Position numbers and translations under genes: made by a program. The notes under the pieces are model-generated. The model was given only the letters and a program-made list of their open reading frames with translations. It had not been told where the DNA came from and searched no databases. This document shows positions 28,012-56,971 of a stretch of DNA of 64,000 bases, one piece after another. This stretch comes from a virus. The stretch lies in the IMG/VR virus record IMGVR_UViG_3300037504_000682, positions 1 through 64,000 of that record, one strand, 5' to 3'. Within the stretch, counting starts at the first letter, position 1. Each line of letters starts with the position of its first letter.

Positions 28012-28245
28012 TTATGCGGCCGGGTCGTTCCGGCCTTTATCTGTCAACTCGTCCGCCGCTTTCAGCTCAGCGGCGATGATTTCCATTAACCTGTCGTTGC
28101 GTACCACCCGCCGGAGGAGGGCTCGCCAGGTGGGCTCGCCAGCCGTCTGGCCGGCGGTGGCTACGGAGCCGGTGGCAGCGGCCAGGTCGTCCAGCCGCTG
28201 CCAATCCTCCGGAGCGAGCGTGGTGCTACGTCGCTCTTGTGGCAT
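28012..28245 (-). CDS. Ribbon-helix-helix-like regulator
   Basis: RRSTTLAPEDWQRLDDLAA...RALLRRVV. Confidence 0.55.
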   Translation of the reverse strand: MPQERRSTTLAPEDWQRLDDLAAATGSVATAGQTAGEPTWRALLRRVVRNDRLMEIIAAELKAADELTDKGRNDPAA

Positions 28246-28249
28246 CGGA

Positions 28250-28471
28250 TTACCTCAATAGGTAGGCGTCAACCAGGTCAGCGGCGGTAATCTCAAAACC
28301 GTCCGGATGATTTCGGTTGAACACGCGGGCCACAATTGTGTCGCCCTTGCCACGATCAACCAGGCTATCCACACTCTCGCCAGCGTTGACCGGCTCCCAC
28401 TTGCCAGACCTGATACCGGCCTGGCGGGCGATTGCTTTGACCTCGGGTGAGGCATTATTCAGGTTAAACAT
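28250..28471 (-). CDS. Hypothetical protein
   Basis: SD AAGGAG directly after promoter. Confidence 0.65.
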   Translation of the reverse strand: MFNLNNASPEVKAIARQAGIRSGKWEPVNAGESVDSLVDRGKGDTIVARVFNRNHPDGFEITAADLVDAYLLR

Positions 28472-43232: not shown

Positions 43233-43506
43233 AAAAAAACCTTTTTTCTGATTAAAATTTGAATTTAATTTGGTTAGCCTGGATTTTTCGGAATCCGTGA
43301 TAGAATGAGTCTGATCCTTAACAACCCGGCCTGCCGCCCCTACGACAGGCCGGACTTTTTCATTGGGCCGCCAACGGTTGGCGACGGGGGCGGCCCAATT
43401 CCTCCTCCGTTTTGTGTATATAATGGTGTATCTATCAACCAGTACCAAAGTACCAGGAGGAGAAAATGAAACCTCAATTAAAACCCGTTAGGAGGTCGAT
43501 TAATCT

Positions 43507-44412
43507 ATGAAAAGGTGGGACCGATTAATCGACCGTTTCGCTACCGGCAAGGCCGTCCGCCGCAAGCCGGTGACCGTCGAGTGGTATCGCCAAAGGCTCA
43601 GTCACTGGGCCGAATTCACAACTAGCCGCAAGCTCAAGCCCAAAAAAGTAAAAGCTAAACATCTTGACAAGTTCTTTGCCGGCCTTAGAGAGGCCGGATA
43701 CACCGCCAATACCATCAAAGGCACCGAAACCGCCCTTCGGACTTTTTTCGGCTGGTTGGTCCGCCGGGGCAAGATGAAGCGCAATCCGTTCGACCGCTTC
43801 GAGCCGGTTGAGGTTCCCCGCCAGTCGCAGCCGATCATCCGGCTGGAGTACGCTTACCGGATGATCCGGGCGGCCGAAGCCGACGATTCCGTGATCGCCC
43901 GCCGGGACGCCGCTATTATGCGCTTCCTGCTCAGCACCGGAGCGCGTAGAGAGGAGGTGGTTTCTGTCAGATGGGAGTGGCTCGACCTGGCCGGCGGCCT
44001 GGTCAAGTTGCGGGGCAAATTCGGCCACGAACGGTTGATTCCACTCGTGGCGACCACCGTCACGGCCCTGGCGATCTGGATCGAGGCCCGGCCAGCCAGT
44101 GACTGGCTGTTTGTCAGCCTGAAGGCTAACCAGTACAATCAAGTCGGGGACAAGCTGGCGGTCAATACGATCAACAAGCTGCTTGACCGCTGGAAAATCG
44201 CGGCCGGCCTGCCAGAAGAGGCCGAGGTCAATCCCCACGCCTGGCGACGCAGGTTCGCCACGGAGCTGGCCAAAGCCGGAGATCCGTTCCGGCTCCAGAC
44301 CCTGCTGGGTCATCTGGATATGAACACGACAAAAAAATACATCCTCGATCAGCCCGATATTTTGAGGGAGATGATCGAGCGCTATGGGCCGGGAATCAAA
44401 GGCGATACGTGA
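43507..44412 (+). CDS. int: Tyrosine integrase
   Basis: TGARREE, K, HAWRR, LGH, Y catalytic residues; SD AGGAGG. Confidence 0.93.
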   Translation: MKRWDRLIDRFATGKAVRRKPVTVEWYRQRLSHWAEFTTSRKLKPKKVKAKHLDKFFAGLREAGYTANTIKGTETALRTFFGWLVRRGKMKRNPFDRFEPVEVPRQSQPIIRLEYAYRMIRAAEADDSVIARRDAAIMRFLLSTGARREEVVSVRWEWLDLAGGLVKLRGKFGHERLIPLVATTVTALAIWIEARPASDWLFVSLKANQYNQVGDKLAVNTINKLLDRWKIAAGLPEEAEVNPHAWRRRFATELAKAGDPFRLQTLLGHLDMNTTKKYILDQPDILREMIERYGPGIKGDT

Positions 44413-44471
44413 TAATCTCTCACGTACCGCTTGGTTTTTCGAGCAGGTTGCCAACGGGGAGCCTTCGGCAG

Positions 44472-44528
44472 ATGATTTAGGATCATGTGCCGAAAGGCGT
44501 GCGGGTTCGAGTCCCGCCTTCCCCACTA
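44472..44528 (+). other. att core: 3' part of tRNA-Leu(TAG)
   Basis: ATGA-TTTAGGA-TCAT anticodon arm, GCC-GAAA-GGC variable arm, GCGGG-TTCGAGT-CCCGC T arm, CTTCCCCA; no canonical D arm. Confidence 0.9.
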
Positions 44529-44529
44529 A

Positions 44530-44743
44530 CTGGTGACCTGTTTTTTGTTGCCGGTTCATGAATATAAATCTCCTACCCTTCTGAGGGTAGCGTGATTAGT
44601 CGCTCGAAAGAGCGGCGAGTGCTGTTGTTCACCCGGGGTTGTTTGGCGACGGGTCCGGGTGAGCGGTTCTGTAGCTGGCGATTGCCATTACAGAACAAAA
44701 GGAAGACGCTCCTGCCTCAGTCGGTGGGGGCGTCTTTTTTATT
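44530..44743 (+). ncRNA. Candidate structured RNA ending in intrinsic terminator
   Basis: Consecutive hairpins with G-U pairs on the plus strand, a GAAA tetraloop and a terminal U-run. Confidence 0.5.
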
Positions 44744-45002
44744 ATCCCTTACTTTCGTCTTCTTTGTGCTTTTCCAGGAATTCAGACAGAGGCACGCCGA
44801 CGGCATCAGCAATTGCTCGCAGGGTATCCAGGCGAGCTCCGGGCTTGTACCCGTTTTTTACGATACCGTAAGTGTGACTGTACGACCGGTCGATCTCCCG
44901 GCAAAGCCAGTCGATGGTTTTGCCCATCTCGTCAAGACGCTGCTCCAGGAATGTTTTTTGTTCCTCTTGTTCCATAATAGCGGTGGCCAGCATCAACAGC
45001 AC
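44742..45002 (-). CDS. XRE-family HTH regulator
   Basis: LCREIDRSYSHTYGIVKNG...LDTLRAIADAVGV. Confidence 0.85.
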   Translation of the reverse strand: MLLMLATAIMEQEEQKTFLEQRLDEMGKTIDWLCREIDRSYSHTYGIVKNGYKPGARLDTLRAIADAVGVPLSEFLEKHKEDESKG

Positions 45003-45049
45003 TCTCCTTTCTGTTTGGTTTGGGCCGCCCCTGGGCGACCGTTTCTAAG

Positions 45050-45157
45050 ATAGTATCACAGCTTTCCGAGCTGGTCAAGACAGTATATACACTTCACTAT
45101 ATATTTTAAGGATTTCTCAGAACGCACGTTGAGAAGTCCGTCAAAATCGGTTATACT
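45050..45157. promoter_or_regulatory. Divergent promoters with operator
   Basis: Minus TTGACC-17-TACTAT; plus TTGAGA-17-TATACT; operator at 45084-45105. Confidence 0.75.
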
Positions 45158-56847: not shown

Positions 56848-56971
56848 TTGCAAAGTCGGAACAAACGTGCTACACTACTGTCAGCGGCGGGAGTCCAGTG
56901 CGGGCTACCCCGCCGCTTACAATTTTAAAGGCCCTCGGACACCCCGTCGCCGTCCGAGGGTCGTTTTTTTT
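56848..56971 (+). promoter_or_regulatory. Late promoter with two-hairpin leader and terminator
   Basis: TTGCAA-17-TACACT; hairpin 56883-56917; CCCTCGGAC/GTCCGAGGG plus T-run. Confidence 0.75.

Follow-up and report, generated by a model that had tools for sequence, protein, structure and literature searches.

A predicted structured RNA beside the tRNA-Leu attachment site of a tidal-flat phage, with loop complementarity to two operon leaders

Folding predictions for both strands indicate that a short interval beside the attachment site of this phage encodes a structured non-coding RNA of ~215 nt, read from the plus strand. The interval is a succession of six hairpins, and the top of the longest one is complementary to hairpin loops in the leaders of two operons, one for replication and one for packaging. 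Our best single explanation for the three matching loops, held tentatively and short of being probable, is that this RNA would be the trailer of a tRNA and would act in trans through kissing-loop contacts. We set out below the evidence on structure, position and loop placement, together with the alternative explanations on which each line of evidence bears.

The phage, uncultured and temperate, is a 99,175 bp IMG/VR record (IMGVR_UViG_3300037504_000682) rated 96% complete, and the window is the whole stretch analysed, 64,000 nucleotides long (bases 1-64000 of the record). Its sequence comes from the assembly of a tidal-flat metagenome, and a second tidal-flat study also contains it at low depth; contigs from a second tidal-flat sample represent the same phage at >99% identity but stop short of covering the hairpin region. 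An exact 127-bp repeat joins 28142-28268 to 99049-99175, the latter copy touching the right end of the contig, and 28018-35 is also identical to 98925-42. Since the remaining sequence around the two copies is unrelated, the repeat does not reflect a concatemer; a genome end, or a join made in assembly, are possible explanations.

On the plus strand, positions 44525-44750 fold into six successive hairpins, H1 to H6 (Table 1). The sequence-only reading of this DNA had described about six plus-strand hairpins ending in a terminator, and both the fold and the terminator scan bear this out. The minimum free energy (MFE) is -107.1 kcal/mol (z -7.43), a value that none of 200 dinucleotide shuffles equalled, as against -72.1 kcal/mol (z -4.53) for the reverse strand. 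H1, H4 and H6 are each 8 to 11 kcal/mol weaker on the reverse strand. There are 16 G.U pairs in the plus-strand fold and only one in the reverse fold, and the hairpin stretch is 61% G+T. In an MFE scan of both strands, the array is the second most structured 220-nt window of the 99-kb genome, the first lying near 69.2 kb. Together, these predictions indicate that the structure is real and has been selected as a plus-strand transcript, not as duplex DNA or minus-strand RNA.

Table 1. Positions of features in the attachment region and in the two operon leaders (coordinates of the window)
Feature	Position	Strand	Evidence and remarks
A', second leftward-leader hairpin, 13-bp stem, weak U-rich tail	43326..43353	-	minus-transcript fold
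B', 11-bp hairpin heading the leftward (replication) operon leader	43362..43399	-	open 16-nt loop starting CCCGUCGCCAA; opening cost 2.5 kcal/mol
Tyrosine integrase (int), XerC/D-like, 301 aa	43507..44412	+	Pfam Phage_integrase 4.9e-27 and N-terminal SAM-like domain
attP core, 3' part of tRNA-Leu(UAG), anticodon stem to discriminator	44472..44526	+	metagenome tRNA contigs; alignment to Caldilineaceae tRNA-Leu
H1, 10-bp hairpin	44528..44556	+	-9.5 kcal/mol, 3 G.U; reverse strand -1.2
H2, hairpin	44567..44597	+	-12.4 kcal/mol
H3, hairpin with GAAA tetraloop	44599..44616	+	-11.0 kcal/mol; reverse strand -7.6
Linker, the only open one in the RNA	44617..44625	+	opening cost 0.1 kcal/mol
H4, longest hairpin, 12+5 bp	44626..44665	+	-25.1 kcal/mol, 6 G.U; reverse strand -14.2
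H5, hairpin	44666..44696	+	-16.1 kcal/mol
H6, intrinsic terminator, 18-bp stem then U run	44699..44740	+	terminator scan; -26.7 kcal/mol; reverse strand -15.8
Small Cro/C1-type HTH gene	44742..45002	-	Pfam HTH_26 4e-4; PHROG repressor families ~3e-4; convergent on hairpin array
Divergent promoter-like sites beside the HTH gene	45050-45157	both directions	promoter scan
L1, first hairpin of the second late leader	56883..56917	+	fold
T, intrinsic terminator of the late (packaging) leader, 11-bp stem	56930..56962	+	open 11-nt loop ACCCCGUCGCC, then eight U; opening cost 3.8 kcal/mol

Could the array instead be a DNA element? The array adjoins attP, and its inverted repeats are of course present in the DNA too; they might be arm sites of attP, or the DNA might form a cruciform or a single-stranded fold that serves recombination or replication. 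However, 16 G.U pairs on one strand suggest selection on RNA or on a single strand, not on duplex DNA. No arm-binding domain was found in the integrase in the Pfam domain search, so DNA arm sites are not expected, and no direct-repeat arm sites were found. The phage also carries a terminase-large-subunit-like gene, which stands against a DNA-level role, and we regard such a role as highly improbable.

Two other assignments were considered and rejected. One was a protein-coding open reading frame at 44592-45053, which runs antisense to the HTH gene and covers all the hairpins. The other was a relationship to two dyad arrays, at 56.4-56.9 kb and 69.2-69.5 kb; their units are AT-rich and unlike the hairpins described here. 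The second of these arrays (69183-69465) is strongly structured on the plus strand, is the most structured window of the genome, and precedes a short CRISPR array at genome positions 69548-69760, outside the window, with a 29-nt type I-E-like repeat, CTATTCCCCACACGCGTGGGGGTGAACCG.

The order of features in the region is leftward operon, int, tRNA-Leu(UAG) 3' fragment, hairpin array and then the minus-strand HTH gene. Several tRNA-Leu contigs from the same metagenomes align at ~44472-44529 and then diverge on both sides, one 171-nt contig is identical to 44472-44526 with zero differences, and the acceptor strand supplied by one loose 5' contig end, GGGGAAG, is complementary to the phage CTTCCCC. 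These observations define the attP core. The hairpin array starts right after it, with H1 2 nt past the tRNA discriminator. Since the core lies on the plus strand with int to its left, integration joins the 5' half of the host tRNA to the phage core and then to H1-H6. The array would hence become the trailer of the rebuilt tRNA-Leu gene, and int would come to lie at the opposite end of the prophage. No plus-strand terminator was detected by the terminator scan between the tRNA end (44527) and H6, in keeping with the earlier claim that none separates the RNA from the tRNA; H6 is the only plus-strand terminator downstream of the core in that scan. The further claim, that integration would put the RNA under the host tRNA promoter, gains support for its geometry from the orientation of the core and the divergence of the contigs; the placement itself is predicted, the attP form being the only one seen among the metagenome contigs. 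With H1 as a cap and H6 as the 3' end, the array would have the layout expected for an RNA that survives tRNA 3' processing.

The nearest relatives of the integrase, ~50% identical, are Chloroflexi proteins, and one related integrase adjoins a full tRNA-Leu(UAG) in a Caldilineaceae genome (the best GTDB match, 45%). On these grounds, the host of the phage is probably a member of the Chloroflexota. Upstream of int, a 14-codon open reading frame (MKPQLKPVRRSINL, 43467-43511) with a good AGGAGG site has a stop codon that overlaps the int start, and may encode a leader peptide. A perfect 12-bp inverted repeat, GGTCGATTAATC / GATTAATCGACC, with 17 nt spacing (43494-43534), flanks the int start codon and overlaps the int RBS; this repeat may form a hairpin that acts on translation, or it may serve as an operator.

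The attP region itself (44441-44543) contains more than a 3' fragment; it carries a decayed copy of tRNA-Leu, with 5'-half remnants GGGGAG and GGCAGA and with the D arm deleted. The fold of this copy as plus-strand RNA has an acceptor-like stem, a long arm and a T arm. It is clamped by a 13-bp helix (44441-53 with 44531-43) that competes with H1, and the RNA would hence fold differently before and after integration. Indeed, in the fold of the attP state the 5' arm of H1 pairs with 44441-53 instead.

H6 has the GC-rich stem and the following U run of an intrinsic terminator, and it also serves the convergent HTH gene, more weakly. Its position suggests that it shields this gene from antisense read-through. 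Hence, the array could be a module that acts only in cis. H6 would stop read-through from the host tRNA, and from int in the free phage, antisense into the repressor gene; H1-H5 would stabilise or pause the trailer or the int 3' UTR; and the loop matches would reflect coincidence or sequence bias. Phages that integrate in tRNA genes must provide the tRNA 3' end and a stop signal, and a strong plus-strand terminator facing a convergent gene is what is seen here. However, one terminator would do, and five more plus-favouring hairpins, H1-H5, that lack U tracts would still need explaining. Two observations on the loops, their co-occurrence in three hairpins and the openness of one of them, also count against a cis-only role, and are described below with those that favour it. 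On balance, we consider this explanation possible but somewhat unlikely.

The motif shared by the three loops is TTGGCGACGGG at 44643-53 and 43378-88, both on the plus strand, and CCCGTCGCC at 56943-51, also on the plus strand; motif searches returned exactly the coordinates first proposed. The 9-mer GGCGACGGG has exactly three copies in the 99 kb, counting both strands: at the top of H4, in the loop of the first leftward-leader hairpin, and in the late-leader terminator, within its open loop. As a raw count this is at chance, as a cis-only role would predict: the window has three copies where 1.54 are expected, and 19 of 100 shuffles had as many. Similarly, an 11-mer match somewhere in 64 kb is unremarkable.

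It is the placement of the copies that is striking. Each copy occupies the apical loop of a hairpin with a GC stem, and the three stem sequences are unrelated. We compared this with a set of 115 loop regions, from hairpins that have 7 bp or more of perfect stem and 9-20 nt in the loop, by shuffling letters within loops. A 9-mer common to three loops arose in 2.2% of shuffles. When only the non-coding loops were used (n=22), a 9-mer was found in three loops in 8 of 40000 shuffles (0.02%), and a shared 11-mer in 0.46%. The non-coding loops were picked with a strand-block mask, and B' was added by hand since translation put the true start of the gene at ATG 43241, downstream of B', which makes B' non-coding. 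The loop test was devised after the data had been seen. The same is true of the non-coding restriction, and we therefore take the true significance of the sharing to be roughly 10^-3 to 10^-2. Thus, the initial caution that chance was not excluded holds for raw k-mer counts, whereas the loop co-occurrence speaks against chance.

The orientation of the copies is also of note. B reads CCCGUCGCCAA on the minus strand in the leftward leader, T reads CCCGUCGCC on the plus strand in the late leader, and H4 reads the complement on the plus strand. All three copies are complementary in the transcripts expected from the gene directions. A triple co-occurrence in loops in the right orientation is unlikely by chance, and is thus difficult to accommodate in a cis-only role. 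On the other side, the leaders of this genome are rich in GC-rich complementary motifs.

What are the proposed targets? The leftward operon, which ends at ATG 43241, includes a replication-initiator-like gene, and the late operon includes a terminase-large-subunit-like gene with 188 viral relatives. The two targets thus head a replication operon and a terminase-like operon, functions that must be silent in a lysogen. Both leaders consist of a first hairpin followed by one that resembles a terminator. Upstream of L1 and T, the late leader has a weak promoter-like sequence (TTGCAA-17-TACACT, 8/12 matches, below the scan cut-off). L1 and T both fold stably as the late transcript grows, so termination would be the default and late expression must need an antitermination event. 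By sequence inspection, the T loop can also pair, with one G.U pair, to GGCGGCGGG in the 5' arm of L1, and H4 could therefore compete with an internal alternative pairing. The 11-nt loop of T is free of internal pairing, which is unusual among the terminators of this phage and is left unexplained by a cis-only role. Of the two late leaders, just one has the target motif. Furthermore, both leaders form the hairpin and the terminator unaided, which counts against a trans-acting RNA.

Just upstream of the leftward leader, in the int/leftward promoter region, the sequence GTGTATATA(A/C)TG at 43414-43425 recurs in inverted orientation at 45081-45092, in the switch region beside the HTH gene; this motif looks like a shared operator.

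The energetics of pairing were assessed with an accessibility-corrected search for ungapped duplexes between the whole RNA and both genome strands, which gave 2569 candidates. Pairing of H4 with B' ranks first (-12.0 kcal/mol) and pairing of H4 with T ranks fourth (-9.2 kcal/mol). The complementarity extends over 11 nt in the leftward leader, and over 9 nt plus one G.U pair in the late leader; both leader-hairpin loops are open. The apical region of H4 (44637-54) holds UUGGCGACGGG (44643-53). The sequence-only reading was right that the H4 loop carries the motif, but the loop is partly closed in the MFE fold: some of the motif is sequestered in a weak helix of 5 bp, three of them G.U pairs, and opening it costs 6.6 kcal/mol. 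Best duplexes for 60 random 216-nt segments of the genome were better (mean -16.2 vs -12.0 kcal/mol) because such segments are less folded. The energies are in this respect unremarkable, as expected for a cis-only role. RNAcofold of the RNA with the leaders gave no gain, although this program cannot represent loop-loop contacts, and an unrestricted RNAduplex search over the genome was discarded since it returned long spurious duplexes. Together, the predicted energies allow the H4 pairings, for which both target loops are open; they are no proof of selection.

Two further matches involve the HTH gene. The linker stretch GAGUGCUGUUG (44617-44627) is identical to the HTH mRNA between its RBS and start codons (44994-45004); as DNA, this is an inverted repeat of 19 nt at 84%, and it ranked second in the accessibility-corrected search. 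In addition, an arm of leader hairpin B (43387-43398) has 12 nt of perfect complementarity to the 5' leader of the HTH gene (45020-45031).

We propose the following for a trans-acting trailer RNA. Transcription from the host tRNA promoter would run through H1-H5 and stop at H6. Processing of the tRNA 3' end would free a trailer with H1 as its 5' cap and H6 as its 3' cap, which would suit a stable RNA. Through UUGGCGACGGG at its top, H4 would then make loop-to-loop contact with CCCGUCGCCAA in the first hairpin of the leftward replication leader, and likewise with CCCGUCGCC in the late-leader terminator, whose loop is open. In lysogens, both leaders would thereby be kept closed or terminating. 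The result would be an RNA layer of immunity, switched by integration, on top of the protein repressor. Indeed, any immunity RNA would be an extra layer beside the Cro/C1-type HTH repressor module and would not provide immunity alone. The least secure step is the direction of the effect, repression over activation; repression in lysogens would be the logical direction. Taken as a whole, this model, in which an integration-activated immunity RNA is made only under the host tRNA-Leu promoter, seems to us unlikely, if far from negligible.

An alternative function for the array is retroregulation of int, as by the sib element of phage lambda. Like sib, the array is a structured element that lies beyond attP from int on the same strand, and that is joined to int only in the non-integrated state (int, 43507-44412; core, 44472-44526; hairpins, 44528-44740, plus strand as int). 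In the free phage, read-through from int would extend into the helices of H4-H6, which are long (18 bp in H6, 12+5 bp in H4), and these would be processed and degraded, e.g. by RNase III. Integration would part int from the element, such that Int could be made on induction. Such read-through is conceivable if the terminator just past the int stop is leaky, and the tRNA-like remnant could direct processing. However, no RNase III site is recognisable from the sequence, no excisionase or antitermination system was identified among the genes (Pfam, PHROG), and the three matching loops are left unexplained. Furthermore, lambda sib acts in cis on int mRNA via RNase III, whereas the array gains an upstream tRNA gene on integration and has complementarity in trans to two leaders. 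We therefore consider retroregulation of int improbable. As to the end of int, a hairpin over its stop codon (44402-44430) is better paired as minus-strand RNA, with G.U in place of an A.C mismatch, and the scan calls a terminator on that strand; on the plus strand it is followed by UUGGUUUUU, and its fold suggests that it could be a leaky plus-strand int terminator.

Another explanation for the same motif in three loops with different stems is that a shared factor, such as a nut-like antitermination protein, binds all three hairpins, each read as a CCCGUCGCC loop. The copy beside att would then have to be read on the minus strand, through read-through from the HTH gene. H6 is indeed weaker as a minus-strand terminator, and a minus-favouring terminator lies further on, at 44430-44402. 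However, the minus-strand copy would fall after the HTH terminator, the array as a whole strongly favours the plus strand, and no RNA-binding antiterminator was recognised among the neighbouring genes. A common recognition element is thus very unlikely in our view.

Relatives of the array were sought in several collections. No Rfam family matched anywhere in the window at the gathering score, and 44380-44800 gave no match even with the threshold relaxed to E<=10. Comparison with phage records by blastn gave only a tRNA-like 60-nt match. Searches for the locus anchored on the integrase, in viral contigs, GTDB genomes and metagenome contigs, gave no usable relative of the array; at the best GTDB locus, the Caldilineaceae one with the 45% integrase beside a full tRNA-Leu, the flank is non-homologous. 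Comparison of the array DNA with 401 Chloroflexota genomes gave chance-level matches only. Relatives of the terminase are at most 60% identical, and the five longer records checked had no related integrase. An exact-pattern scan for the top of H4 returned 21 matches in unrelated contexts, about the number expected by chance. The array is hence currently an orphan element, with no alignable relative in the collections searched.

How does the proposed RNA compare with known systems? The sequence-only reading had cited the immunity RNAs CI of P4 and C4 of P1. As with P4 CI and C4 of P1/P7, we propose a small structured phage immunity RNA with two complementary sites in lytic operons, where it would cause premature termination or shut-off. 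By sequence, the array RNA has two complementary sites in lytic transcripts (11 nt, and 9 nt plus one G.U), as do members of the C4 family. P4 CI and C4 are processed by RNase P, and processing of the array RNA by tRNA-maturation enzymes is plausible. Unlike the C4 antisense family, the array RNA has no sequence or structure match in Rfam. CI and C4 are cut from the leader that they control, whereas the array RNA is a separate unit, 1.2 kb and 12 kb from its proposed targets. Its expression would, unlike that of the P4 and P1 RNAs, hang on the host tRNA promoter after integration, and a protein repressor is also present. Membership of the P4 CI/P1 C4 family is thus not borne out, and the comparison is one of analogy. 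The suggested RNA immunity switch is supported in part: plus-strand structure at the RNA level, a geometry that places the RNA after the tRNA, and non-random placement and orientation of the loops have support, whereas expression of the RNA and an effect on termination are predictions.

Small RNAs of the 3'ETS-leuZ type are derived from the tail of a tRNA transcript, the 3' external transcribed spacer (3'ETS), and are released by processing. Further precedent for RNAs from the tail of a stable-RNA transcript comes from small RNAs located between the dual terminators of rRNA operons (PMC8144298). The array RNA would resemble both, as the tail of a stable-RNA transcript that ends at the operon terminator, in its predicted integrated form only. 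RNAs of these two kinds are chromosomal and act as sponges or bind Hfq or CsrA, whereas the array trailer is supplied by the phage and, in our proposal, made only in lysogens. Even on a modest reading, the array is a clear example of a phage-supplied, highly structured tRNA trailer with an insulating terminator at a tRNA attachment site.

The proposed contacts resemble countertranscript attenuation in pT181 and pIP501, where loop-loop contact between an antisense RNA and a nascent leader sets terminator formation. A further likeness is that the top of H4 starts with a YUNR-like UUGG. The pT181 and pIP501 RNAs are encoded in cis opposite a single target, whereas the array RNA would act in trans on two targets, with 9-11 nt of complementarity. 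If this is correct, the large open loop of the late-operon terminator, otherwise puzzling, would have a function.

Integration-dependent immunity has been described in mycobacteriophage BPs and its relatives; in BPs, attP lies inside the repressor gene and integration strips a degradation tag from the repressor protein (PMC4557955, PMC3694055). The likeness is that, in our proposal too, integration at attP turns immunity on. Unlike in BPs, the core is 215 bp past the HTH stop (44742-44), outside the repressor coding sequence, and what depends on integration would be an RNA. Should the model be true, it would provide the first example of integration itself switching on an immunity RNA via a borrowed host tRNA promoter. 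It would also unite the RNA immunity of P4 and P1 with the integration-dependent immunity of BPs, in a phage of a barely studied host group, probably the Chloroflexota.
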